DNA of 64,000 bases from a bacterium (GCA_021781955.1 JAJXVV010000003.1:27933-91932), one strand, 5' to 3'. Positions 10,885 to 50,312 are shown, counted from the stretch's first letter. A program made the numbers and translations. Notes: generated by a model from the letters alone, not told the origin.

Positions 10885-12111
10885 TTAGCCCCAAATGGCG
10901 GTAAGGATGCTCTCGCGCACGACGAGACGCGCGGGAACGAGGCCGGAAATGAATCCGGCAACGAGGAACCCGATGACGCTCTCGCCGATCAAGGTCGGAC
11001 CGAACGAGAGCAAGAGCGGACCGAAGGGCAGCATGATGGGATGCACGCTCAAGACGGGCAGCAAGATGCCGAAGACGAAGAAGAGTCCGACGAGCACGCC
11101 GCAGATCACGTAGAAGAGCGATTGGAACACGTAGGCCCACACGACGACGTCCTCCTTGATGCCGATAGCCTTCAAGATGCCGATCTGCCGGCGGCGGTTG
11201 AGGGCGTTGATGTAGATCATGACGAAAATGGTGATCGCCGCGACCAGGACGCTAATGATCGAGACTATCCCCGCGATCAACGTGAATGCGTCGAGCACTG
11301 ATTGAATGACCGCGAGGAGCTCCGAATACATTTTCACCTGGAGCTGCGGCGCGAGCGCCTCGATGCGGCCTTTGTAGTACGAGAGCGGATGCGACGCGTC
11401 GACCTTCACGAGGATCTGCGACGCCTGATCGGAAGCGCCGAGGACCGACTCGGCCTCGCGGCTCGTGATATACGTGTTGGAAAGCGCCGTGCCGAACGTG
11501 ATGTTCACGATGCCTTTCACGGTGTACTGCCGCCGCACGCCGTTGGCGTAGGTGATGGTCACCTTATCGCCCACTTTGGCGCCGCCGAGATCGGAAGGTA
11601 CCGGCAGGCCATAGCCGCCAGCAAGCGCCGCAGGCAGGAGGACCTGATCGGTATCGCTCGGCGAGAGGAACTGCCCCGCAACGAGGTAGCGCTTGAGCGA
11701 GAGCGCGTCGTCCACCTGACCGGGATCGATGCCGATCATCTGCGCCGATACGCTCTTGAAGACACCGTTCTTATCCGCATCGAACGATATCGAACCGGCC
11801 GTGAGGTACACGCGCGCCGTGCCGACGATGCCGGGAATCGTGTGCAGCTGCGCCTGCAATTGCTCTTCATCGGCGATGAACTGTTCCGGCACGGGGAGCT
11901 GCTGGGGCGTGATGACGATATCGGAGGTGGTCGTATTGATGAGGAGATTGGTGATGGTGTCGAGCAATCCTGAGAAAACGCCCGGAATGAACACCATGTT
12001 GAAGAACGAGAGACATAAGATGAGCAGCATGAACGCGAGAAGCGAGCGGCTGCTCCGCATGATCGATTTGTACGCGATGAAGAGCGCGGTCGAGAGGTCG
12101 GTCAAGGTCAT
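10885..12111 (-). CDS. FtsX-like ABC transporter permease
   Basis: 4-TM FtsX/MacB-type permease with a large extracytoplasmic domain. Start at the MTLTDLS Met (cat at 12109-12111). Forms an operon with the ATPase and the upstream adaptor. Confidence 0.75.
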   Translation of the reverse strand: MTLTDLSTALFIAYKSIMRSSRSLLAFMLLILCLSFFNMVFIPGVFSGLLDTITNLLINTTTSDIVITPQQLPVPEQFIADEEQLQAQLHTIPGIVGTARVYLTAGSISFDADKNGVFKSVSAQMIGIDPGQVDDALSLKRYLVAGQFLSPSDTDQVLLPAALAGGYGLPVPSDLGGAKVGDKVTITYANGVRRQYTVKGIVNITFGTALSNTYITSREAESVLGASDQASQILVKVDASHPLSYYKGRIEALAPQLQVKMYSELLAVIQSVLDAFTLIAGIVSIISVLVAAITIFVMIYINALNRRRQIGILKAIGIKEDVVVWAYVFQSLFYVICGVLVGLFFVFGILLPVLSVHPIMLPFGPLLLSFGPTLIGESVIGFLVAGFISGLVPARLVVRESILTAIWG

Positions 12112-12133: not shown

Positions 12134-12219
12134 GGCGCGTCCGGACGGACACTTCCCGCGGAGGAACTGTCCGAGCGAAGCGAGTTTTCCGCAGCGGGAA
12201 GTGTCCGTCCGGACGCGCC
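12134..12219. repeat. hairpin repeat element copy 1 (26-bp perfect inverted arms, conserved 34-nt loop)
   Basis: Arms are ggcgcgtccggacggacacttcccgc and gcgggaagtgtccgtccggacgcgcc. The loop ggaggaactgtccgagcgaagcgagttttccgca is 30/34 identical to the loop of a second hairpin at 40736-40817. Intergenic between the adaptor and FtsX genes. Confidence 0.6.
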
Positions 12220-12230
12220 ACACCCATAGG

Positions 12231-13760
12231 TCAATTCGTTCCCGTCACGACGACGTCGCCTTCTTGTAGGCCGGAAAGTATTTGCACCATGCCGCTCTGG
12301 TCTTTGAGGCCGGTGGAGACCGGCATCGTCGTCGGCGAACCGTTCTGGAGCAGCTGTACCGTGCTGCTCGCGCCCGAGGCCGTGACCGCGCTCGCCGGCA
12401 CGAGGAGGGCGTCGGAACTCGAGGCCGTCTGTATCCACACATTGGCCGTCATGCCGGGCCTCACGCCTGCGTACGTTTTAGTAAAGAGGATGGTTGTTTG
12501 GTAGTAGATGGCGCCGCCGACCACGGTCTGCGCGGGATCAACTTCGCTCACCTTCCCGTCGAACGACGTGCCTGCCGGAAATGCGTCGAGCTCGATGCGC
12601 ACCGGGTCCCCTGGCACCACGCCAACGACGTTGTCCTCCGAGACGTTGACCTTCACGTCGAGCGCCTGATCGGGCTGCAGCGTGACCACCGCAATATCCG
12701 GCGTCACGTTCTCGCCCACGCTCCCCTGCGTATCGGTGATAGTGCCGCTGAAAGGCGCGATGATCTCGAGGGTGCGTATCTGCGCTTGGATCGCGGTGGC
12801 GGCGGCTTGCGCCTGCTGCACGGCGGCTTGCTGCGCGGCAATGGTCGAGGCGGTCGAGCCGGCGAATTGGAGCGCCAGGGTCTTTTGGTCTTTAGCGAGG
12901 GTCGAGGACGCTGCTGCTTGCGTCGTCTCGGCAGCAGTCAGCGTTGAGAGCGCGGCATTGACGTTCGTACGCGCGGTCGCAACACCGGTCGTCCAGGTCG
13001 TGAGCTGCGTCTGGGTGACGCCCTGGCCGGGCAGTGCTTTGTTGAGCGCCGTGTTCGCATCGGCGAGCAAATTCGAGACGGCATTAAGCCCGCTCTCCGC
13101 CTGAGCGATCGGCAAAGCGCCGCCTGCGGATGCCGCGAGCTGCGCTTGGCTCCAATCGGCCATCGTCGAGCCGATGGCCACGCGCTCGCTCTCGAGCTGC
13201 GTCTCAAGCTGCGAATCGGGCAGCGAGAACAGGACCTGCGGGTTCGTGCTGCGAGGATTGTTGAACAAAAGATCGACGCTGTTGCCGATCGCGCTATCAG
13301 ACGTCGTGTAGGCGCTCATGAGCGCGTTCAAAAGGGACTGCCGGCTCTGCGAGAGCGCGACCTCGTCGCTTTGCACCTGCGCTTGCGTAACGGCTATCTG
13401 CTCAGGGCGTGTGCCTTCTTGCAGGGTCGCGAGCGCCGCCTGCTGCATCGCGACCACTGCCTGCGCCTGGGAGAGCTGCGCCTCAAGCACGCTCGTGTCT
13501 TGCTGCGCGAGCACGGCTCCCGCCGCGACACGCTGTCCGACCGCCACATTGAGCGCGACGAGCTGCCCCGGCGACTGGAAGCGCAGGACGCTCGTCGTCG
13601 GCGACTCGACATTGCCGCTCGCGAGCGCCTCCTGCACGATAGGGCCGCGCGTTACCGCTGCCGTGACGTAAGCCGCCGGCCGGGTGCGCACGAAAAGGAC
13701 GGCCGCGCCTGCGACGAGCACGACCGCGATCCCGATGGTCGCGAGCGCGTGGTTCTTCAT
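12231..13760 (-). CDS. efflux adaptor (membrane fusion protein, MacA/HlyD family)
   Basis: Signal-anchor MKNHALATIGIAVVLVAG, long coiled-coil (Q/A-rich), C-terminal beta domain. Start set at the MKNH Met (cat at 13758-13760). Confidence 0.7.
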   Translation of the reverse strand: MKNHALATIGIAVVLVAGAAVLFVRTRPAAYVTAAVTRGPIVQEALASGNVESPTTSVLRFQSPGQLVALNVAVGQRVAAGAVLAQQDTSVLEAQLSQAQAVVAMQQAALATLQEGTRPEQIAVTQAQVQSDEVALSQSRQSLLNALMSAYTTSDSAIGNSVDLLFNNPRSTNPQVLFSLPDSQLETQLESERVAIGSTMADWSQAQLAASAGGALPIAQAESGLNAVSNLLADANTALNKALPGQGVTQTQLTTWTTGVATARTNVNAALSTLTAAETTQAAASSTLAKDQKTLALQFAGSTASTIAAQQAAVQQAQAAATAIQAQIRTLEIIAPFSGTITDTQGSVGENVTPDIAVVTLQPDQALDVKVNVSEDNVVGVVPGDPVRIELDAFPAGTSFDGKVSEVDPAQTVVGGAIYYQTTILFTKTYAGVRPGMTANVWIQTASSSDALLVPASAVTASGASSTVQLLQNGSPTTMPVSTGLKDQSGMVQILSGLQEGDVVVTGTN

Positions 13761-13839
13761 ATCGTACAGGATACCACGCGGCGCGCTCCTCCAGAGGAAC
13801 GTGCCGCTCAATGTCATGTGTTTGCTACAATGCGCGAGT

Positions 13840-14691
13840 ATGAAATTCATCGGACGCCCTACCGTCGGTCTCGCGCTCTCCGGCGGATCGGCCAAAGGCC
13901 TCGCGCACATCGGCGTCATCAAGGCATTCGAAGAGGCGGGAATACCGATAGACATGATCGCCGGCACCAGCATGGGTGCGCTCGTCGGCGCGTTTTATGC
14001 AGCCGGCCGCGATGGCGCCGAACTGGAGCGCATCGCGAACTCGATCGACCGGCGGCAGCTCTTGCAGCTCCTCGACCCTGGCTTCAACGGCGGCTTGATG
14101 GCGGGCGAGAAGGTATACGAGTTCATCGATTCGTTCCTACGCGGCGCGACCTTCGAGAAATGCCGCGTCCCTTTCCGCGTCGTCACCACCGACCTGCGCA
14201 CCGGCGAGCCGACCATCTTCGACGACGGCGAACTGCTGCCCGCAATACGCGCGAGCATTTCGCTGCCTCTGGTGTTCAATCCGGTCCCGTATCGCGATCT
14301 TCTCCTCACCGACGGCGGACTCTCGCTCCCCTTGCCCGCGCGCGTCGTGCGCGACATGGGAGCCGACATCGTCATCTCCGTCAACGTGCTCTCCCGCCTC
14401 GACCCGCGAGCTGTCGTTCACCCGAAAGGCGTCAGCGGCATTTTCAGTGTCGCGAACGCGTCCATCGACATCATGATGCGCAACCTCACGAAGCAGGACG
14501 CCACGCTTTCTGACATCGTCATCGCGCCGGAGGTAAGCAGCTTCAATAGCCGCGACTTCGATCGCGCGCGGCCGCTTATCGAGCTTGGTGCCGTCTCCGC
14601 CAAGGAGGTGCTCCCCCGCATCAAGGGCGCGATCACCGCGAAGACCCCGCCGCTACGGCGCCTTCTTACCCGCCTGCGTTCACTGCATTGA
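13840..14691 (+). CDS. patatin-like phospholipase
   Basis: GGSAKG oxyanion motif, GTSMG nucleophile elbow (GxSxG), DGG catalytic Asp motif. Start at the MKFIGRP Met. Confidence 0.75.
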   Translation: MKFIGRPTVGLALSGGSAKGLAHIGVIKAFEEAGIPIDMIAGTSMGALVGAFYAAGRDGAELERIANSIDRRQLLQLLDPGFNGGLMAGEKVYEFIDSFLRGATFEKCRVPFRVVTTDLRTGEPTIFDDGELLPAIRASISLPLVFNPVPYRDLLLTDGGLSLPLPARVVRDMGADIVISVNVLSRLDPRAVVHPKGVSGIFSVANASIDIMMRNLTKQDATLSDIVIAPEVSSFNSRDFDRARPLIELGAVSAKEVLPRIKGAITAKTPPLRRLLTRLRSLH

Positions 14692-18445: not shown

Positions 18446-18870
18446 ACCTATATTCTGCCGAACTCGCGCAGCGAACGCTAACGGACGCGAGCGCTTGCAA
18501 ACGACGACAAACTGTTGTGTTATCCACAGCTCCCTCTTCCTGTCCAAAGACAATCTCCCCGGAATCCGTATGATGGAAGTACGCAGCTTACCGCGCGCCC
18601 TCACGAAGGGCCCGTAGGAAAGCGACGAGGCTGCAGGGCGCTACAGCCGCTGAGCAGAACCCTGCTCAGGCAAGGTGCGTAACACCGAAGACAGCGCTTC
18701 GGCCCTATCTTCAGACTCTGCGCTCCTTGGCCCTGATTCTCGGTCTCACGAAGACTCAGAATCCCAGAAAACAAAAACACGATTATTCACCGCGAGCGGT
18801 TCGCCGCTCTCGAATTAAGTGCTTTTGTTTGCGTGGGATTTTTTCTCGTGCACGCAAAGGCCTATGCACA

Positions 18871-20214
18871 ATGACCAATCAAGAATTGAAGATTACGTAT
18901 GTCCCCATTGAGACCCTTAAACACCCTGAACGGAATCCTCGCTTCTGGAGCAACGAGGTAAAGCTCCAGCTCAAAGAGAGCGTCACAAGACACGGGGTTG
19001 TCGACCCATTAATCATCAATACCGCGCCCGGCCGGGAGAACATCTGCATTGGTGGGAACTTGCGGTTGGAGGTCCTCAAAGAGCTCGGCCATAAAACAGT
19101 GCCGGTCGTCTCACTCTCCATCACCGACCCGAACAAGGAGCAGGAGCTCATATTGCGGTTGAATCGCAATGTCGCGGAGTTCGACGCGACGCTCCTCAGT
19201 GAGTTCGACGAGGCGTTCCTCAAAGACATCGGATTTTCGTCGGAAGAATTGGATGAGGTGTTTGAGGTCGAGAAAGACGAAGAACAATTCGACCTCGAAA
19301 AGGAATTAGACAAGCTCCAGATAGATCAGATCACCGTAGAGAAAGGAGACGTGTACGACCTCGATGGGTCACGTCTTAAATGCGGCGACTCTACTGTGGA
19401 GGCTGACGTGCTGGACCTAATGCGCGGAGAAAAAGCGGACATGTGCATGACCGACATGCCGTACCGCCTCAGTTACCTGAAGGGCAAAACGCGCAAAGGA
19501 AACCCAACGGTCGGCTTCGGTGCAAAAAGAAACCGCCGGTACCTCGAGACCGAGGCGCTGCCACCGGACTTCGTTGAGAAGTGGATGGGTAATGTTGCCA
19601 AGGTCGCTAACAAGGACTTTTCCATCATTTCCTACGAAAACTGGCGCAACATCCGCGAACAGTGGGACGTGATGGAGAAGCAAGGATGGAAGGTCCGCAA
19701 CATGATCGTCTGGCACCTCCCCACGAGGAACCAGGGCTATGCCGGCAAAAATATCTTGTTCTCGAAGCATGACATCGCGATGGTCGGCACGAGCGAAGCA
19801 CACAGCGGTCTCAACCTTGAGCCCGAGGACGGACTCTATGAGAACCAGTACGAAACTGCTCTCTTCGCGATCCAGGGTAAAGGTTCCCACTGGGAAAACT
19901 ACGGCAAAAACAAGAAGTACTGCCCGACGGATTTCATCGAGTTCAACGCAGCTGACGAGAAGTCTTCCGGGCAAGCGATCATCTACGGCGTAAAGCCGAT
20001 TGAGATCCTCCTGCCCTACATCAAAACGCTCACCAAGCGCGGTCAGCTCATCATTGAGCCCTTTGCGGGATCGGGTTCCACATTAATTGGAGCGAATACA
20101 CTTGGTCGCCGGTGCTTCGCGATGGAAAAAGTACCGACCTATGCCGAGGTCATCCTCAACCGATGGGAAAAGTTCTCTGGGAAGAAACGCGTAAAGATCC
20201 ATGCACAAGCGTGA
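18871..20214 (+). CDS. ParB-like nuclease domain / DNA methyltransferase fusion (beta-class N6A/N4C MTase)
   Basis: N-terminal ParB/Srx-like region (KITYVPIETLKHPERNPRFW...VVDPLIIN). Then DMPY (motif IV variant of DPPY) precedes the FAGSGST AdoMet-binding motif I, which is beta-class order. Common in phages and plasmids. Confidence 0.7.
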   Translation: MTNQELKITYVPIETLKHPERNPRFWSNEVKLQLKESVTRHGVVDPLIINTAPGRENICIGGNLRLEVLKELGHKTVPVVSLSITDPNKEQELILRLNRNVAEFDATLLSEFDEAFLKDIGFSSEELDEVFEVEKDEEQFDLEKELDKLQIDQITVEKGDVYDLDGSRLKCGDSTVEADVLDLMRGEKADMCMTDMPYRLSYLKGKTRKGNPTVGFGAKRNRRYLETEALPPDFVEKWMGNVAKVANKDFSIISYENWRNIREQWDVMEKQGWKVRNMIVWHLPTRNQGYAGKNILFSKHDIAMVGTSEAHSGLNLEPEDGLYENQYETALFAIQGKGSHWENYGKNKKYCPTDFIEFNAADEKSSGQAIIYGVKPIEILLPYIKTLTKRGQLIIEPFAGSGSTLIGANTLGRRCFAMEKVPTYAEVILNRWEKFSGKKRVKIHAQA

Positions 20215-33721: not shown

Positions 33722-33781
33722 AAGTTACCAACTCCGAGGAGGAACGGATGCTCTGGACTCCTTCACTAAAGGCGTCATTCC

Positions 33782-35119
33782 TTGGGGTGTATGGACACCA
33801 TTACGAGGGCACCCCTGGGCGGTATTAGCAGGCAGGCCGTACAAGCGCCCGTAAGGATCAAATACTGCCTGTATGCAAGAAAGAGCACCGAGAGTGAGGA
33901 GCGGCAGGTGCTTTCGATAGATAGCCAGATCAAGGAGATGCTCCAGCTGGCCGACCGAGAAGGGCTTGAGGTAGTGGAGATGAAGCGCGAGTCTCACTCG
34001 GCAAAGGAAACTGGCAAGCGGCCGGTATTCAATGAGATCGTCGACGAGCTCCGGGCTGGCAAGTATAACGGTATCCTCACCTGGGCACCGGATCGTATCA
34101 GCCGTAACGCCGGGGACCTTGGCAAGATTGTCGACCTCATGGATGCGGGAGCATTGATGGAGATTCGCACATACGGTCAGAGTTTCAAGAATAATCCGAA
34201 TGAGAAGTTCCTTCTCATGATTCTCGGCTCGCAAGCCAAACTCGAGAACGACAATCGCGGAGTGAACGTGAAGCGCGGGTTGCGGACGCGCTGCGAGATG
34301 GGTTTGCGGCCGGGCGTAGCACCGGTCGGCTACAACAACGAGAAGCATGCTGACAAGAAGTGCCACGCAATCGTTGATCCGGCGCGCGCGCCGATCGTGA
34401 AGCAGATGTTTGAGAAAGTCGCCAACGAGAAGTGGAGCGGCAGGCGCATACACCAGTGGCTCAAGTTCGAGCTCAACTTCAAGAGTCGGGGCAACAAGAA
34501 CATGACGCTTAGCAGCGTGTACGTAGTACTCCAGAACCACTTCTACTACGGCATGTTTGAGTACCCGGTAAACAGCGGGAATTGGTACGAGGGCAGACAC
34601 CAGCCGCTCATCACCAAAGAATTGTTCGACAAGACGCAAGAGCAACTCAAGCGCGACCGGATCGTGCGCTCCGACATTAAGGAATTTGCCTTCACCAAGC
34701 TTATGGTATGCGGCCTGTGTGGCTCCGGCATCTCCGCTGACGAGAAGTTTAAGAAGCTCAAGGATGGAACCTCTAACCGCTATGTGTACTACGGCTGCAC
34801 CCGAGCGCGGGACAAGAGCTGTAAGGGCGGCTACGTGCGCGAGGAGGCGCTCATCGAGCAGATGGTGAAAGTGATGGACAAGGTCGATTTCAACAAGATG
34901 GCCATGCGTGACAAGTTCGAGGCCGAGGTAGAGCGCATGCGGAAGTTCCAGCGTGCATTCACTGGCGGAGATGATGCCAAACCACGGAAGGACATAGATC
35001 TGTGCGACTACGCGAAGTACCTGCTCAAGGAAGGCAGCGTTACGGAAAAACGAGAGCTGCTACTTTGCATCAAAAGCAAGCTGGTGCTTACCAGAAGCGA
35101 ATTGAAACTCGAAAACTAG
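33782..35119 (+). CDS. large serine recombinase (resolvase/integrase family)
   Basis: N-terminal resolvase domain with nucleophile context YARKSTESEE and a conserved GILTWAPDRISRN block, then a recombinase domain and a zinc-ribbon (CGLCGS...YYGC...C). About 445 aa. Confidence 0.8.
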   Translation: MGCMDTITRAPLGGISRQAVQAPVRIKYCLYARKSTESEERQVLSIDSQIKEMLQLADREGLEVVEMKRESHSAKETGKRPVFNEIVDELRAGKYNGILTWAPDRISRNAGDLGKIVDLMDAGALMEIRTYGQSFKNNPNEKFLLMILGSQAKLENDNRGVNVKRGLRTRCEMGLRPGVAPVGYNNEKHADKKCHAIVDPARAPIVKQMFEKVANEKWSGRRIHQWLKFELNFKSRGNKNMTLSSVYVVLQNHFYYGMFEYPVNSGNWYEGRHQPLITKELFDKTQEQLKRDRIVRSDIKEFAFTKLMVCGLCGSGISADEKFKKLKDGTSNRYVYYGCTRARDKSCKGGYVREEALIEQMVKVMDKVDFNKMAMRDKFEAEVERMRKFQRAFTGGDDAKPRKDIDLCDYAKYLLKEGSVTEKRELLLCIKSKLVLTRSELKLEN

Positions 35120-37811: not shown

Positions 37812-37841
37812 GGTCGCGAAACACGGTCTCACGTTCCTGCG
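37812..37841. repeat. direct repeat copy B (abuts/overlaps by 2 nt the 3' end of tRNA-Ser)
   Basis: See copy A at 17241-17270. Confidence 0.6.
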
Positions 37842-37926
37842 GAGAGGGAGGGATTCGAACCCTCGATACCGTTTCCAGTATGCCGCATTTCGAGTGCGGT
37901 GCCTTCGACCACTCAGCCACCTCTCC
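37840..37926 (-). tRNA. tRNA-Ser (anticodon CGA), long variable arm, no encoded CCA
   Basis: Reverse complement folds as GGAGAGG / D-arm / CCGCA-CTCGAAA-TGCGG / 18-nt variable arm / GAGGG-TTCGAAT-CCCTC / CCTCTCC plus G. Confidence 0.85.
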
Positions 37927-38063
37927 CAGTACCACCCCGAAAGGGGTGGTCCTCCCGCAAAACGCGGGGAAAATGACCTGGCCACCATCAAAATAGCACA
38001 CTTTCGAGCCGTGAAAAAATGCGTTACACTGCAGACGATTCGCGCATGCTGCGAACAAAAGAC

Positions 38064-38135
38064 GGCCCTATCGTCTAGTGGTTAGGACAGCAGCTTTTCA
38101 AGCTGTTAACTCGGGTTCGATTCCCGATAGGGTCA
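38064..38135 (+). tRNA. tRNA-Glu (anticodon TTC), no encoded CCA
   Basis: GGCCCTA acceptor with D-arm GTCT/GGAC, anticodon arm GCAGC-TTTTCAA-GCTGT, T-arm TCGGG-TTCGATT-CCCGA, TAGGGTC plus A. Confidence 0.8.
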
Positions 38136-39992: not shown

Positions 39993-40853
39993 ATGCGGCA
40001 AACGCGCGACATCATGGGCATGCCGGTCATCGTCGAGATAGTCGGCGGCGATGAGGCCGCGCTCGAGGCGGTGTTCGCCTACTTCCGCGGGATCGATGAG
40101 CAGTTCAGCCCGTACAAAAAAGAAAGCGAGGTCTCGCGCCTCAGCGACGGCCGCCTTGCTAAGAGCGCCGCTTCGCGCGAGATGCGTGAGGTGCTTTTGC
40201 TCGCCGAACAAACCAAGCGCGAGACGAACGGCTATTTCGATATTTACACGCCGAGCGGTTCGTTCGACCCTTCCGGCCTCGTGAAAGGTTGGGCGATCCA
40301 AAAAGCCGCACAGCTTTTGCATGACAGGGGGCATCATAATTTCTGGGTCGAAGCGGGCGGCGACATCCAAACCTCCGGCCGCAACGCTGAAGGCGGCGAG
40401 TGGAGCGCCGGCATCCGCAATCCGTTCAATTCGTCCGAGATCGTGAAGGTCGTCTATCCGCGTGGCGCAGGCATCGCGACATCCGGCACCTACGTCCGCG
40501 GCAGCCACATCTACGATCCGCACCTGGGAGCTCCGGTGCGTTCCGAGCTCGTGAGCCTTACCGTTATCGGGAAAAACGTCTACGAGGCCGACCGCTTCGC
40601 CACGGCGGCTTTCGCCATGGGGCGTGACGGCATGTACTTCATCGAGCAGCACCCGGAACTCGAAGGCTACGCCATTGACGTACAGTGCCGCGCCACGCTC
40701 ACGAGCGGTTTTGCCGGATACACAATCGCTGCAAAGCCGTCCGGCGCGAAAGTTCTTGCAGAGGAACTGCCCGAGCGAAGCGAGTTTTCCGACGCAGGAA
40801 CCTTCGTGCCGGACGGCTCTCGGATATCATTACCGACGTATGCCACTTCGTAA
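39993..40853 (+). CDS. apbE: FAD:protein FMN transferase (ApbE family)
   Basis: ApbE family blocks (MGMPVIVEI, GYFDIY, GLVKGWAIQKAA, FWVEAGGDI, ATSGTYVRG). The C-terminal 30 aa are encoded by hairpin repeat copy 2. Confidence 0.7.
   Translation: MRQTRDIMGMPVIVEIVGGDEAALEAVFAYFRGIDEQFSPYKKESEVSRLSDGRLAKSAASREMREVLLLAEQTKRETNGYFDIYTPSGSFDPSGLVKGWAIQKAAQLLHDRGHHNFWVEAGGDIQTSGRNAEGGEWSAGIRNPFNSSEIVKVVYPRGAGIATSGTYVRGSHIYDPHLGAPVRSELVSLTVIGKNVYEADRFATAAFAMGRDGMYFIEQHPELEGYAIDVQCRATLTSGFAGYTIAAKPSGAKVLAEELPERSEFSDAGTFVPDGSRISLPTYATS
40736..40817. repeat. hairpin repeat element copy 2 (24-bp imperfect inverted arms, conserved 34-nt loop)
   Basis: Arms are gccgtccggcgcgaaagttcttgc and gcaggaaccttcgtgccggacggc (21/24 complementary). 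The loop agaggaactgcccgagcgaagcgagttttccgac is 30/34 identical to copy 1. Lies inside the apbE 3' end and just upstream of the next gene's start. Confidence 0.6.
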
Positions 40854-41568
40854 AACGATCCTCTCGATAGCGATGCTCGCGATATTCTCGACGTACGCGT
40901 TCTACGAGCACGCGCACAGCGACAGCGGAAATCTCGCAGCGCTCATCATGAGCGACCTCACGGGCCGCGAGCAAAACGGCATAGCTGCCGCTGACTCGCA
41001 CACCACTCCGTCGCAACAGACTGCAACGACCCCTGCACCGGCTGCGAGCGCTACCGCGCAACAACAGTACGCGCAATACCTCGCGCAGATCAATGCGCAA
41101 GCTGCGCGCCGCGGAGATGAAAGCTCATCTGAGGGCGAAGGTGAGGGCGGTGAGGGGCGACGTCTTGCGACCACGCAGCCAGCACCCGCCCCCGCACAGA
41201 CGCAAGCAGCAACCCCTGCGCAATCCGCCCAAACGCAACCAGCTCAGACCTCTGCTCCAGCGCAGCCGCAACAGCCGCAGGGACAGTACAAGGATGGCAC
41301 GTACACCGGACCGAGCGTGTTCGTCTACTACGGCAACGTGCAGGTGCAGGCCATCATCCAGGGCGGCAAGATAGCCGACGTCAAGTTCCTCCAATACCCG
41401 AGCGATCGCAGCACGTCGCAGTACATTAATAGCCAGGCCATGCCGATGCTGACCCAGGAGGCGATCGCTGCGCAGAGCGCCAATGTGAGCGGCGTCTCCG
41501 GCGCATCCGAGACGAGCAGCGGCTTCGTGCAGTCGCTCGGTCCAGCGCTCGCGCAAGCGCACGCATAA
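40840..41568 (+). CDS. FMN-binding domain protein, paralog 2 (Gln/Ala/Pro-rich linker)
   Basis: Signal anchor, long low-complexity linker, C-terminal domain about 70% identical to the 39497 protein, with NVSGVSGASETS (S-G-A-S motif). Start at MPLRKTIL (atg 40840). Confidence 0.6.
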   Translation: MPLRKTILSIAMLAIFSTYAFYEHAHSDSGNLAALIMSDLTGREQNGIAAADSHTTPSQQTATTPAPAASATAQQQYAQYLAQINAQAARRGDESSSEGEGEGGEGRRLATTQPAPAPAQTQAATPAQSAQTQPAQTSAPAQPQQPQGQYKDGTYTGPSVFVYYGNVQVQAIIQGGKIADVKFLQYPSDRSTSQYINSQAMPMLTQEAIAAQSANVSGVSGASETSSGFVQSLGPALAQAHA

Positions 41569-47056: not shown

Positions 47057-48103
47057 ATGCGGATACTCGGCGTCGAGACCAGCTGCGACGAAACGGCCAT
47101 TTGCCTTATCGAGGCCAGTGGCGAGTTCGGTCCTGCGTTCAGATTCAGCGTGCTTGGCGACACGCTCGCCTCACAGGCAACGCTGCACGCGCAGTATGGC
47201 GGCGTGTTCCCCAATCTCGCGAAGCGCGAACACCTCAAGAACCTGCCGGTGCTTTATGAGGCGGTGCAGAAACAGGTTGGCGGTGTGAAGCCGGACGCGA
47301 TCGCGGTCACGGTCGGGCCAGGGCTTGAGCCGTGTCTGTGGACGGGGATCAATTTCGTGCAGAGGCTCGCCGATGAGTCGAAAGCGCCTGTCGTCGGCGT
47401 CGATCACATGGAGGGACACATCATGCTCTCGATGATGGCCCACGGAAAACTGTCTGACTTCGAGTTCCCCGTGCTCGCTCTCCTCATTTCCGGCGGCCAC
47501 ACGGAACTCGTCGTGATGCGCTCCTTCGGCGAGTACGAGGTGGTCGGGCGCACGCGCGACGATGCGGCTGGCGAGGCGTTCGACAAGGTCGCGCGATTGC
47601 TCAGCCTGCCGTATCCGGGCGGGCCGGAGATATCGCGCATTGCGCGGGCCGCCCGTTCCGCGGGCGGCCCGCGCCTCTACAACCTTCCGCGTCCGATGCT
47701 CCACGAAAATAATCTCGACTTTTCGTTCTCCGGCCTCAAGACCGCCGTACGGCGGCAGGTCGAAGACAAATCAGTCACCGACGATGAGCGCGCCGCGCTC
47801 GCGCGCGAGTTCGAGGACGCGGTCGCCGACGTGCTCGTCGGCAAAGCGATGCGTGCCATCGACGAGTACGGCATCAACACGCTCGTCGTGGGCGGCGGCG
47901 TTTCTGCCAACGACTATATTCGTGAGCGGCTGAAGACCGCGCTGGAAAACGAAGGCAACATCGCCAAGCTCCTCGTCCCTCCACCGGAGCTCGCCACCGA
48001 CAACGCACTCATGATCGCGCTCGCCGGCTACTTCCACGCGCAGAAGAAAGAATTTACCGACCCGTCGTCGCTCACCGCCGACGGCAACCTCGCGCTTGGC
48101 TAA
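47057..48103 (+). CDS. tsaD: tRNA N6-adenosine threonylcarbamoyltransferase
   Basis: MRILGVETSCDETA N-terminus and Kae1/TsaD family blocks (metal-binding HMEGH, GGVSAN). Confidence 0.9.
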   Translation: MRILGVETSCDETAICLIEASGEFGPAFRFSVLGDTLASQATLHAQYGGVFPNLAKREHLKNLPVLYEAVQKQVGGVKPDAIAVTVGPGLEPCLWTGINFVQRLADESKAPVVGVDHMEGHIMLSMMAHGKLSDFEFPVLALLISGGHTELVVMRSFGEYEVVGRTRDDAAGEAFDKVARLLSLPYPGGPEISRIARAARSAGGPRLYNLPRPMLHENNLDFSFSGLKTAVRRQVEDKSVTDDERAALAREFEDAVADVLVGKAMRAIDEYGINTLVVGGGVSANDYIRERLKTALENEGNIAKLLVPPPELATDNALMIALAGYFHAQKKEFTDPSSLTADGNLALG

Positions 48104-48119
48104 TTCGTGCTATAACTTC

Positions 48120-50312
48120 GCCATGGAACCGTCCAAGGCGCCTGAAGCGTTCTTGAGGCCCTACAACCCGGCCGAGCAGGAACCGCGCATGCTTGAGCTG
48201 TGGGAAGACAGCGGCTACGCCAATCCAGACGTCTGTGTCGAGAAAGGCGTCATCGAGCCTGATGCCGAACCCTATTCAATAGTATTGCCGCCGCCCAACG
48301 TGACCGGCACGCTTCACATGGGACATGCCGCGATGCTCGCTATCGAAGACATCCTCATCCGCTACCACCGCATGCGCGGGTACAAGACCCTTTGGTTGCC
48401 CGGCACCGATTCGGCCGCCATCGCCACGCAATCAAAAGTTGAAACGGATATCTACAAGAAGGAAAAGAAGACCCGGCACGACCTCGGCCGCGAGGAGCTG
48501 CTCAAACGCATCGAGCAATTCACCGACGAGAGCAAGGCGACGATCATCAACCAAACGAAGAAGATGGGCAGCTCGCTCGATTGGAGTCGCTACGCCTACA
48601 CGATGGACGAGGAGCGGTATGCGGCCGTCATGGAAGCGTTCGTGCGCATGTACGATGCGGGCCTTATTTATCGCGGCGACCGCATCGTCAATTGGGACCC
48701 GAAATTGCAGACGACCGTCTCCGACGACGAAATCGAGCACGTCGAACAGAAAGACCCATTTTTCCATTTCAAGTACGGCCCGTTCGACATCGGTACCGTA
48801 CGCCCTGAGACGAAGTTCGTCGACAAGTACGTCGTCATGCATCCCGAAGACGAGCGTTACGCGCAGTACAAGCATGGCCAAACGATCGAGGTGGAGTGGA
48901 TCAACGGCCCTATTACGGCAACCATCATTAAAGACAAGGCGGCCGACATGAGCTTCGGTTCGGGCGTGATGACCATTACGCCCGCGCACTCGGCCATCGA
49001 CTTCGAGATCGCGCAGCGCCATGGGCTCGACATGGAGCGCGTGATCGACGACCGGGGTATTTTGCTGCCCATCGCGGGCGAGTTCGCCGGCATGCACATT
49101 AAGAAGGCGCGCGCGCTCATCGTCGACAAGCTCAAGGCCAAGGGCTTGATCGCGAAGGTGGACGAAGGCTACATGCACAACGTCGCGACCAACAGCCGTG
49201 GCGGCGGCATTATCGAGCCGCAGATCAAGCGCCAATGGTTCATCGCGGTCAATAAGAAAGCGAAGTTCCCCGACGGCAAAACGCGCACGCTCAAGGAGTG
49301 GATGCGGCACGCGGTCGAGAGCGGCGAGGTCGGCATCATGCCAGAGCGTTTCGAGAAAATTTACTACCACTGGATCGACAACCTGCGTGACTGGTGCATC
49401 TCGCGGCAAATATGGTTCGGTCACCGCATCCCCGCATGGTTCAAAGATGACGAGGTGAAAGTGCAGGCCGGCTCGCCGGGCGAGGGTTGGGAACAGGACC
49501 CCGACACGCTCGATACCTGGTTCTCGTCCGGCCTGTGGACATTTTCCACGCTCGGCTGGCCGGATGATACGCACGACATGAAGACCTACCACCCGACCTC
49601 CGTACTTGAGACCGGCTACGACATCCTCTTCTTCTGGGTCGCGCGCATGGTGCTCATGAGCGGATTCTTGCTCGGCGAGGTCCCCTTCCGCAAGGTCTAC
49701 CTGCACGGCCTTGTGCGCGACGGATCGGGCCGCAAGATGAGCAAATCGCTCGGCAACATCATCGACCCGCTCACGATGGTCGAGAAGTACGGCGCCGACG
49801 CCGCGCGCCTTTCGCTCGTCATCGGCGCTTCGATGGGCAACGACGTGAAGCTCTCGGAAGACCGCGTGCGCGGCTACAAACATTTCGGCAACAAGGTCTG
49901 GAACATCGCGCGCTTCGTGCTCGAGAATCAGCAAGACCCCAGAGGACCGTCCTCTGGGCGTCCAGAGGACGGTCCTCTGGGCGAGGAGGATAGGCTGCTT
50001 ATCGTCGAGGCGCACACGGTCGCCAAGCAGGTATCCGAGCACATCGACCGCTTCCGCCTCGACCTCGCGGCCGATCAGGTCTACCACTTCGTGTGGGACC
50101 GCTTCGCGGCAGAAATACTCGAAAGCTCGAAACCGATACTGAAAGGCGATGATGCGGCGGCCCGCCAAGGGCGGGCCGCCGCCCTCTCCGAGATACTCGG
50201 CATCTCGCTCAAAATCCTTCACCCCTTCATGCCCTTCGTCACTGAGGCAATCTGGCAGCAGCTGCCGCAGAAGGAGTCCGACCTCCTCATGGTGGCGAAA
50301 TGGCCGGTCTAG
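48120..50312 (+). CDS. valS: valyl-tRNA synthetase (short form, no C-terminal coiled-coil)
   Basis: HMGHA (HIGH-class motif in PPPNVTGTLHMGHA), KMSKS, and editing-domain and anticodon-binding blocks typical of ValRS. About 730 aa. Confidence 0.85.
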   Translation, partial: AMEPSKAPEAFLRPYNPAEQEPRMLELWEDSGYANPDVCVEKGVIEPDAEPYSIVLPPPNVTGTLHMGHAAMLAIEDILIRYHRMRGYKTLWLPGTDSAAIATQSKVETDIYKKEKKTRHDLGREELLKRIEQFTDESKATIINQTKKMGSSLDWSRYAYTMDEERYAAVMEAFVRMYDAGLIYRGDRIVNWDPKLQTTVSDDEIEHVEQKDPFFHFKYGPFDIGTVRPETKFVDKYVVMHPEDERYAQYKHGQTIEVEWINGPITATIIKDKAADMSFGSGVMTITPAHSAIDFEIAQRHGLDMERVIDDRGILLPIAGEFAGMHIKKARALIVDKLKAKGLIAKVDEGYMHNVATNSRGGGIIEPQIKRQWFIAVNKKAKFPDGKTRTLKEWMRHAVESGEVGIMPERFEKIYYHWIDNLRDWCISRQIWFGHRIPAWFKDDEVKVQAGSPGEGWEQDPDTLDTWFSSGLWTFSTLGWPDDTHDMKTYHPTSVLETGYDILFFWVARMVLMSGFLLGEVPFRKVYLHGLVRDGSGRKMSKSLGNIIDPLTMVEKYGADAARLSLVIGASMGNDVKLSEDRVRGYKHFGNKVWNIARFVLENQQDPRGPSSGRPEDGPLGEEDRLLIVEAHTVAKQVSEHIDRFRLDLAADQVYHFVWDRFAAEILESSKPILKGDDAAARQGRAAALSEILGISLKILHPFMPFVTEAIWQQLPQKESDLLMVAKWPV
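49939..49980. repeat. tandem pair of a palindromic 19-mer (ccagaggaccgtcctctgg and its reverse complement), in-frame inside valS
   Basis: Two hairpin-forming units separated by gcgt. Encodes PRGPSSGRPEDGPL within ValRS. A third copy is at 52218-52236. Confidence 0.7.

Follow-up and report, generated by a model that had tools for sequence, protein, structure and literature searches.

Two inserted hairpins in a Patescibacteria genome belong to an apparently undescribed family with a conserved tip and covarying stems

Why would two long hairpins of one bacterial genome keep nearly the same loop while the sequence of their stems has changed on both sides at once? This question is raised by a 64,000-nt stretch of DNA (GCA_021781955.1 JAJXVV010000003.1:27933-91932; hereafter the window, with positions counted from its first nucleotide), in which an earlier note had pointed out one hairpin with perfect arms at 12134-12219 and a second one further downstream, and had suggested a repeat family under selection on structure, such as a REP/MITE-like element (REP, repetitive extragenic palindromic; MITE, miniature inverted-repeat transposable element) or a protein- or recombinase-binding site, with function or mobility at the DNA level. 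The GC content of the window is 58.6%, and the named homologues of its proteins come from Patescibacteria (Paceibacterota, Kaiserbacteria-like). Here, we show that the two hairpins belong to a family whose members are capped by a conserved tip and whose stems covary. This family is shared by bacteria of at least four phyla and is apparently undescribed.

Both structures were found as they had been described. The first copy (86 nt, 12134-12219, with the core-sense strand on the plus strand; 60.2 bits with covariance model R1) has a 26-nt 5' arm (12134-12159) that, in an inverted-repeat search, is the perfect complement of its 3' arm (12194-12219). When GGAA/TTCC is included, the repeat reaches 33 nt with 94% complementarity. 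The second copy (84 nt, 40735-40818, plus strand; 53.3 bits with the same model) has imperfect arms of a different sequence that still pair, 40735-40766 with 40787-40818, giving 32 nt at 81% complementarity. These are the top two inverted repeats of the whole 64-kb window, and their folding z-scores are -7.7 (copy 1) and -5.9 (copy 2), with equally good folds in 0 of 200 shuffles. What we call the invariant tip core reads CTGTCCGAGCGAAGCGAGTTT in copy 1 (12167-12187, plus strand) and CTGCCCGAGCGAAGCGAGTTT in copy 2 (40767-40787, plus strand), with the GCGAAGC mini-hairpin at 12175-12181 and 40775-40781, respectively. The 34-nt loops, both of which contain GCGAAGC, are identical at 30 positions, and the 31-nt centre GAGGAACTGYCCGAGCGAAGCGAGTTTTCCG has exactly two matches in the window (12161-12191 and 40761-40791, both on the plus strand), where none is expected by chance. 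A third copy was not found in the window by a covariance model scan with filters off. The top non-family match of the hairpin model is a 12-bp GC-rich hairpin at 228-261 (ACAGCCGGCGAA...TTCGCCGGCTGC), which resembles an ordinary terminator-type stem-loop.

The arms of the two copies are homologous and equal in length, and the way in which they differ is informative. A total of 28 of the 32 stem positions are paired in both copies; 18 of these are identical, one has changed on one side, and nine are compensatory double changes. Divergence reaches 23 of 64 positions (36%) in the arms, which are thus 64% identical, and 1 of 20 in the tip (Fisher p=0.009), the tip core being identical at 20 of 21 positions. 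The outermost 3-4 bp also differ, with feet of GGCGCGT...ACGCGCC in copy 1 and AGCCGT...ACGGCT in copy 2. The copies lie 28.6 kb apart without common flanking sequence. As judged from these comparisons of sequence, they are diverged copies of one repeat element. We also considered whether the arms had been copied from neighbouring host DNA, and rejected this origin because the arm sequences have no significant match elsewhere in the window.

The earlier note had itself allowed that just these two copies might exist, or that a shared coding fragment might explain the loops. Neither is the case: many members were found outside the host genome, and no coding fragment accounts for the loop. Member searches outside the window used exact-match patterns, with one scan each of the genome and metagenome collections, so that the sample covers undiverged tips only. 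The core, CTG-YYY-GAGCG(A/C)AGCGAG-TTT, stands on top of hairpins whose arms fall into roughly 20 unrelated sequences, amounting to about 30 distinct copies after deduplication. Among species-representative genomes, the tip 20-mer had a single match, in a metagenome-assembled genome of Ralstonia, where the same 28 nt sit on a hairpin with wholly different arms. A BLAST search of plasmids placed the tip in 128 Ralstonia megaplasmids, at up to 7 places per replicon, and a further plasmid search added Ilyobacter polytropus (Fusobacteriota) and Aureibacter tunicatorum (Bacteroidota). The 21-nt pattern matched 74 metagenome loci (gut, groundwater and other metagenomes), and a slightly degenerate pattern matched 5 contigs of a viral collection; E. 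coli genomes had no core match. The element is present in finished genomes of isolates, namely R. pseudosolanacearum GMI1000, Ilyobacter polytropus DSM 2926 and Aureibacter tunicatorum NBRC 107587. GC content of the loci ranges from 31% to 65%, the GC content of the arms (31-67%) follows that of the host, the arms reach up to about 100 nt, and most copies lie in ordinary chromosomal intergenic regions. With regard to previous descriptions, nothing in Rfam 15 was hit at the gathering score by the window, the Ralstonia loci or ten other loci, and permissive thresholds brought up only generic long-hairpin (miRNA precursor) models. Full-text literature searches for the core or the Ralstonia modules returned unrelated primers only, and those for Ralstonia MITEs or hairpins or for conserved-loop repeats returned nothing relevant, ISfinder and subscription journals being outside the scope of both.

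Covariation of the stems, which the earlier note had read from two copies, is borne out in this wider set as well as by the nine double changes against one single change in the window. In an ungapped alignment of 25 distinct members, which were picked for pairing, so that it mainly quantifies covariation and is not independent proof of it, 86.9% of stem cells are paired, compared with 60.6% in shuffles and 28-54% in slid-partner controls; double-change cells number 105, versus 33 in shuffles. Twelve flanking positions pair at 8-12 of 12 in members and at 3-7 of 12 around 21-mers that lie in histidine-kinase genes, a clean bimodal split. The latter matches (L024, L025, L027-L031, L041, L053, L060 and L074; mostly the C variant) fall in HisKA coding sequence (reverse strand ...KLASLGQL...) without a flanking inverted repeat; they are chance coding matches and were used as a negative control.

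Some further matches have another layout. In metagenome contig Ga0307992_1107419 (L012, 120-980), at least six direct core copies (CTGYYCGAGCGAAGCGAG), with variants such as CGAGCGTAGCGAGCG, stand in GC-rich non-coding sequence without flanking inverted repeats; this cluster looks like an iteron-like array. In phage RB16, between gp24 and uvsY (L083, 1190-1390), CGAGCGAAGCGAG and CGAACGAAGTGAG make up a large inverted repeat whose centre is AT-rich. About 50 RB16/Lw1-like phages keep this arrangement, which has the motif in the arms and not in the loop, and on account of this different layout the RB16-type matches were not accepted as family members. At locus L047 (8900-9150), the core adjoins 17 nt duplicated from the 5' end of a tRNA-Met gene nearby, and the core region is followed by the reverse complement of the D-arm region of that tRNA-Met, with no long hairpin.

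Could the hairpins be artefacts, either adapter or foldback chimeras or a chance match of a coding fragment? The 21-mer does occur by chance in the histidine-kinase genes mentioned above, and in two metagenome loci (L035 and L062) the core joins the left arm of one element type and a right arm of the human-gut type (L010), the far side of L035 being the reverse complement of the left flank of L010. We had considered these two loci as recombinants and judged them to be probably assembly chimeras at palindromic k-mers. The window hairpins, however, are not assembly artefacts, since the sequence of copy 1 is identical across five independent assemblies from three sources (ENA, Logan and NCBI), the ApbE protein whose tail is encoded by copy 2 is recorded on seven contigs (NCBI, Logan and ENA), and the gene order spanning both hairpins agrees with that of relatives. 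Moreover, the element occurs in the finished genomes of three named species, its arms carry mismatches and bulges, unlike those of foldback chimeras, and the variation of the tip is out of step with codon positions. Thus, for the window copies an artefact or chance match is refuted, and we give it a negligible probability.

Next to the genes, both copies occupy very tight junctions. Copy 1 sits in a MacB-type efflux operon on the minus strand, between the stop codon of a HlyD/MFP-type adaptor gene upstream (12231-13973, minus strand, as the longest open reading frame (ORF); 528 aa in public gene calls) and the start of an FtsX-type ABC permease gene downstream (10885-12111, minus strand), whose GGAGAG ribosome-binding site starts 3 nt past the hairpin foot. 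Copy 2 lies in a plus-strand operon, within the extended 3' end of the gene for ApbE, a flavin mononucleotide (FMN) transferase (39993-40853, plus strand), whose final ~35 codons (IAAKPSGAKVLAEELPERSEFSDAGTFVPDGSRISLPTYATS) come from copy 2 and its flanks. It is 21 nt upstream of the ATG of the next gene (40840-41568, plus strand), which begins MPLRKTILSIAMLAIF, has orthologues with an FMN_bind domain and overlaps the extended ApbE end with its ATG. Gene calls confirm that copy 1 lies between minus-strand genes and copy 2 between plus-strand genes, and the pattern is on the plus strand both times; the core-sense strand is antisense to the operon at copy 1 and sense at copy 2. The suggestion that this common genomic orientation indicates a function at the DNA level is not supported, as two copies agree with a 50% chance and units in Ralstonia occur as inverted pairs.

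In relatives with an FtsX protein 72-75% identical to that of the window, there is either an overlap of the MFP stop codon with the FtsX start (ATGA) or a distance of 15 nt between the two, compared with a spacer of 119 nt in the window that holds the 86-nt hairpin and then a new GGAGAG ribosome-binding site. Homologues of ApbE have about 247 aa and stop 1-3 nt ahead of the next ATG. The window ApbE has 286 aa; its homology ends at ...TSGFAGYT, and the ORF continues for ~35 codons across the hairpin into the next gene. Because the same gene junctions overlap or lie 1-15 nt apart in related Patescibacteria, both window hairpins are lineage-specific insertions, and filled and empty orthologous sites, as known from MITE insertion polymorphism, exist for both.

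These findings bear on another explanation, in which each hairpin evolved locally as an immobile intercistronic terminator, attenuator or mRNA stabiliser and the loops are alike by local duplication. Both copies do lie between co-transcribed genes, and the elements at L010 and L079 resemble bidirectional terminators with flanking A and T tracts. In the window, neither hairpin is followed by a T tract on either strand, so that intrinsic terminators are not seen there, and the two sites, 28.6 kb apart, have no flanks in common. Since the same tip recurs in unrelated genomes of four phyla and both window sites are empty in relatives, this explanation is largely refuted and we regard it as very improbable.

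Across the 25 members the consensus of the tip is CTG-YYY-GA-GC-GNA-GC-GA-G-TTT, variable only at the three Y positions and at the N of GNA (A or C). Position Y6, which faces G18, is C in 17 members and T in 8. From its sequence the tip is predicted to form C/U-G, G.A, A.G, G-C and C-G pairs under a GNA triloop (the GCGNAGC mini-hairpin), and the variation at N (A/C) and Y6 (C/T) fits this fold. Closure would be by pairing of A with the last T, as is usual, or of the first C with the following G. Because the tip extends the mini-hairpin by two tandem G.A pairs and the Y-G pair, the whole element would be a nearly continuous hairpin with a 3-nt apex. In DNA, the GCGNAGC mini-hairpin is extraordinarily stable and poorly bound by SSB; mini-hairpins recur at the primase start sites of phages G4, St-1 and alpha3 and in ssiA (RepB'), and the hairpin promoters of the N4 virion RNA polymerase (vRNAP) have a 5-bp stem with a GAA or GGA loop mini-hairpin (review PMC13037366). 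By eye, we also tried hammerhead, K-turn and T-loop readings of the tip and dropped them on misfits of essential positions or register, including hammerhead A6 and A14, the Y-G pair between the bulge and the G.A pairs, and T-loop Ψ55. A small-protein reading (LSERSEF...FFAYFL) was rejected as well, the identity being at the nucleotide level and the variable positions not at codon thirds.

Many members outside the window are 150-230 nt in length and carry two added conserved modules. The first, located 8-10 bp below the tip, is a bulge of the 5' arm that reads (C)GTTAAGAA in hosts of low GC content and AAAAA(A) in hosts of high GC content. The second, on the 3' side, reads TCTTGAY...CTTTTG...TTACTTTYC-[RTCAAGA]-GAAAGTAA and has compensatory changes in both of its helices; a 17-nt stretch of it is identical at 17 of 17 positions between Aureibacter and Ralstonia. 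An H-type pseudoknot in this module is doubtful, as the connecting loops would have 0-1 nt, and two alternative helices are more likely. In Ilyobacter the 3' module is also present without the tip hairpin, and the family is therefore a mosaic, like the bacterial interspersed mosaic elements (BIMEs). The window copies represent the minimal form, with arms and tip and without the A-rich bulge or the 3' module.

In other hosts the element behaves as a repeat. At least seven near-identical copies of ~215 nt, many of them at contig ends, occur in the termite-gut contig set Ga0209755, and two other contigs (L071 and L040) have two copies each. Ralstonia strains show presence, absence and deletion forms, and the glgB-glgX site differs between strains. 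Units in this genus stand as inverted pairs, producing a nested palindrome in the glgB-glgX spacer: at L007 (1150-1650), L100 and L101, two inverted units of ~190 nt form a 'Russian doll' palindrome. Progressively shorter forms are found in strains FJAT445 and MAFF301069, with junctions at short direct repeats (GGGGNCGA; YTACTTTCTTTG), as expected of palindrome-stimulated deletion. The Aureibacter element has a DnaG-type primase gene on one side and two XerC/D-like tyrosine recombinase genes on the other, within a duplicated ~8-kb mobile unit. On pAT2 (L099, 19800-35000) this unit is in tandem duplicate inside an RHS toxin locus and comprises an RHS C-terminal fragment, a small ORF, a helix-turn-helix regulator, the DnaG-like primase, the hairpin element and the two tyrosine recombinases. 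Homologues of the Aureibacter primase and recombinases were not found at the other family loci.

How does the family relate to known interspersed palindromes? With REP/REPIN-RAYT systems (Y1 HUH) it has in common interspersed extragenic palindromes that form hairpins as single strands, are non-autonomous, evolve by compensatory changes and often occupy spacers within an operon or between convergent genes. REPs, however, measure 20-40 nt and are species-specific; their stem is conserved, including a GTAG foot on the 5' side, and a genome has tens to hundreds of nearly identical copies, which typically flank a RAYT gene. The present family has a tip conserved across phyla, arms of 26-100 nt that are unrelated between hosts, and a low copy number in the roughly 74 kb of the host genome that were searched; the window copies have 84-86 nt and feet of GGCGCG and AGCCG, with arms 64% and tips 20/21 identical. 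The likeness to MITEs and foldback elements (Correia, ERIC/IRU, RUP, RPE and Nezha) is closer in outline, as these are non-coding long hairpins of 80-230 nt, inserted at gene junctions, polymorphic for presence and absence, present as multi-copy sets in some genomes and read in frame in the case of the Rickettsia RPEs, which may be compared with the ApbE tail. MITE families, on the other hand, are defined by conserved terminal inverted repeats common with a parent insertion sequence (IS) and by target-site duplications. In the present family the termini are least conserved (the outer 3-4 bp differ between the window copies, and the arms are unrelated between hosts), the centre is invariant, and neither a parent IS nor a clear duplication was seen. 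BIMEs, too, are mosaics of separable conserved modules, which correspond here to the tip hairpin, the A-rich bulge and the 3' two-helix module, but their sequences and modules are different and they are confined to enterobacteria, of which the E. coli genomes lacked the core. The earlier description as REP/MITE-like and mobile is therefore a fair one as regards a repeat family with inserted copies. Formal membership among REPs or classical MITEs fails, because the tip is conserved rather than the arms or termini, and because there is no GTAG foot, no nearby RAYT or transposase gene and no clear target duplication. Integron attC sites and CTX attP are also recognised by structure as single strands, with paired sequence free to vary. 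In attC the R and L boxes at the foot (RYYYAAC...GTTRRRY) and extrahelical bases are conserved and the loop is variable, which is the opposite of the layout found here, where the loop is conserved; no tyrosine recombinase was present in the scanned ORFs, and the window has no integrase or cassette context.

A further rival explanation is that the element is, or derives from, a single-stranded DNA (ssDNA) initiation or recombination signal of a mobile replicon (G4-type, ssiA-type, single-strand origin (sso), attC or CTX attP), with chromosomal copies, including the window pair, as dispersed relics or miniature derivatives. Such signals (G4 oric, RSF1010 ssiA, ssoA/ssoU) and the N4 vRNAP promoters likewise are strand-specific imperfect palindromes with a GCGNAGC-type mini-hairpin, and a mini-hairpin within a palindrome is what the family has. 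The invariant CTG at the start of the core adjoins the mini-hairpin, as it does where DnaG starts; the primase DnaG of E. coli recognises 5'-CTG-3' as a trinucleotide of the template. Full-length members are strand-asymmetric imperfect palindromes of 150-230 nt, as sso elements also are, and the Aureibacter element stands between a primase and two recombinases. Occurrences of mini-hairpins at the G4, St-1, alpha3, ssiA and N4 vRNAP sites (PMC13037366) point in the same direction. Against this, known signals of the kind occupy defined places on phage or plasmid replicons, with 1-2 per replicon, in contrast to a family dispersed in chromosomes, where most copies are intergenic. A context of primase and recombinase genes was found in one host only. 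The window copies, which lack the strand asymmetry (bulge) of other members, lie in efflux and flavin-transfer operons with no adjoining primase or tyrosine recombinase gene, the DnaG gene being more than 20 kb away, just past the window end. Primase trinucleotide preference varies between phyla, and the invariant CTG is thus not obviously explained by the DnaG of the host. The inverted pairs in Ralstonia also speak against a role bound to a single replication direction. We consider this origin improbable.

The reading that we favour, with a confidence slightly short of even, is that of a non-autonomous foldback (MITE/REPIN-like) element in which the tip is a module recognised in single-stranded form and the arms need only pair. 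Such an element would have inserted into two very tight gene junctions of the host Patescibacteria genome, and its defining part would be the tip of the hairpin and not the arms, which, as they need only pair, would drift with compensatory repair. It may act as a single strand, for instance in replication or transfer intermediates or in transcripts, where the tip would nucleate folding and serve a trans-acting enzyme, which would copy or move the element, as its point of recognition; HUH, tyrosine recombinase-type and primase-type enzymes are candidate partners. In favour of this reading are the two insertions, the drift of the arms in contrast to the tip, the family with its covarying stems, the fit of the tip variation to the predicted fold, the repeat behaviour in other hosts, the lack of a G:U-type bias among the arm mismatches, the known mini-hairpins of ssDNA priming sites and hairpin promoters, and the primase and recombinase neighbours in Aureibacter. 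In the window, the inserts would be tolerated passengers of host operons that break translational coupling, giving FtsX a new GGAGAG site and ApbE about 35 additional codons, and the 24-26-bp duplex placed in polycistronic mRNA is a plausible RNase III or stability site.

A number of observations weigh against this reading. Just two copies are present in about 74 kb of the host genome (the window and the 10 kb beyond its right end, where a core motif scan found none), and about 130 kb of related genomes have no copy. A clear target-site duplication was not seen at either window site; CCT (copy 1) and GGATAY (copy 2) are weak candidates, relatives at 72-75% amino acid identity being too diverged to fix the junctions. 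The association with a transposase that the earlier note had proposed to look for was not found, and neither a transposase nor a RAYT, Y1_Tnp domain or tyrosine recombinase was detected among about 40 window ORFs; a large serine recombinase gene lies 22 kb from copy 1 and about 6 kb from copy 2. No protein is common to the element neighbourhoods, as nothing beyond ABC ATPases and spurious ORFs came out of all-vs-all BLASTP. Outside the window, the apparent invariance of the tip is in part a product of the exact-match search, the independent evidence for tip constraint being the contrast between tip and arms inside the window and inside Ralstonia; the mini-hairpin fold of the tip, moreover, is a prediction that draws on the literature on DNA oligonucleotides. 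Finally, three features are closer to RNA than to DNA: the core-sense strand folds better than its complement in most members, the 3' module has two covarying helices, and the T variant of Y6 gives a wobble pair on the core-sense strand only.

The last three observations belong to a rival in which the family is a structured RNA module. Here, the core-sense transcript would be functional, with a long helix presenting the conserved apical loop through tandem G.A pairs and a GNA/GNR-like cap, and full-length members would also have an internal loop rich in A and, on the 3' side, a domain of two helices. The loop would be the binding site of a widely conserved protein or RNA, and copies would spread or persist through some activity of the RNA, such as processing, stability, regulation or priming. 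Strand-asymmetric features conserved across phyla (the purine-rich 5' arm, the A-rich bulge and the 3' module) favour it; the bulge and the purine-rich arm point to RNA or to a strand-specific single-stranded form. The compensatory changes in both 3'-module helices, the 17-nt identity between Aureibacter and Ralstonia, a Y6-G18 pair that is either C-G or U.G, and a U-tract after many members, as in a terminated small RNA, also agree with it. Other results do not: no Rfam family matched, even at permissive thresholds, and the mismatches of the long arms are free of a G:U-type bias (G:T 39, A:C 33, p=0.56), as expected of DNA inverted repeats. The orientation relative to genes is mixed, with copy 1 antisense, copy 2 sense, inverted pairs in Ralstonia and many members between convergent genes; bulge, 3' module and U-tract are all missing from the window copies, and no sigma-70-like promoter was found near either of them. 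Mobile DNA, in contrast to RNA genes, typically has arms of 70-100 bp and sets of many near-identical copies. The evidence on function at the DNA or the RNA level is thus split, and we regard an RNA module as possible but unlikely.

A bolder proposal, to which we give tentative credit well below that of an even chance, is that the tip (CUG-YYY-GAGCGNAGCGAG-UU), the (C)GUUAAGAA or A5 bulge and the 3' two-helix module together make up a new structured single-stranded element read by one conserved machinery in Patescibacteria, Pseudomonadota, Bacteroidota, Fusobacteriota and other hosts, for example as a site of primase or polymerase entry or of a structure-specific recombinase. It would spread as a miniature mobile hairpin with arms free to evolve and would constitute a new class rather than a variant of REPs or MITEs.

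Two other features of the window were also observed. Between 16000 and 40000 lies a block of lower GC content (52-56%, versus 58-64% in the flanks) that contains a ParB-domain DNA methylase (18574-20211), SHOCT and DUF347 proteins, the large serine recombinase (33770-35116) and tRNA genes (37840-38135), and is probably an integrated element. The two copies flank it, one on each side and both outside. In the closest relative found (L089), the MacB-type efflux operon and a sigma/FMN_bind/RnfD cluster are 1.5 kb apart, and in the window ~26 kb, including the low-GC island, separate the two hairpin-bearing operons. The hairpins were considered as attachment (att) sites of this island and rejected, as the arms self-pair in each copy without hybrid sites, and as 4-5 kb separate copy 1 from the island. 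The gene for a class I aminoacyl-tRNA synthetase (48015-50312) contains in frame, at 49938-49981 and thus between its catalytic domain and its anticodon-binding domain, two tandem 23-nt units, CCAGAGGAC(C/G)GTCCTCTGGGCG(T/A). Each unit is palindromic, and the pair may be an in-frame palindromic insert of another kind.

In interspersed palindromes such as REPs, MITEs and attC sites, conserved arms or feet are normally the defining part, and each kind is limited to one species or one element. The present family reverses this layout: a tip of about 20 nt is near-constant across at least four phyla while its surroundings change by compensatory substitution. As this conservation is found in sequence that is neither coding nor rRNA, it implies strong constraint in all hosts. 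The constraint may be physical, an exceptionally stable GNA mini-hairpin nucleating folding, or may come from a widespread protein that reads the tip, and cultivable hosts (Ralstonia solanacearum, Ilyobacter polytropus and Aureibacter tunicatorum) make the question experimentally accessible. An answer could bring to light a mechanism of miniature-element mobility, a signal for ssDNA priming or recombination, or an RNA motif, each of them new. In the very small genomes of Patescibacteria, the inserts split translationally coupled genes and lengthened a protein, and in this way illustrate the remodelling of operons by elements of this kind.

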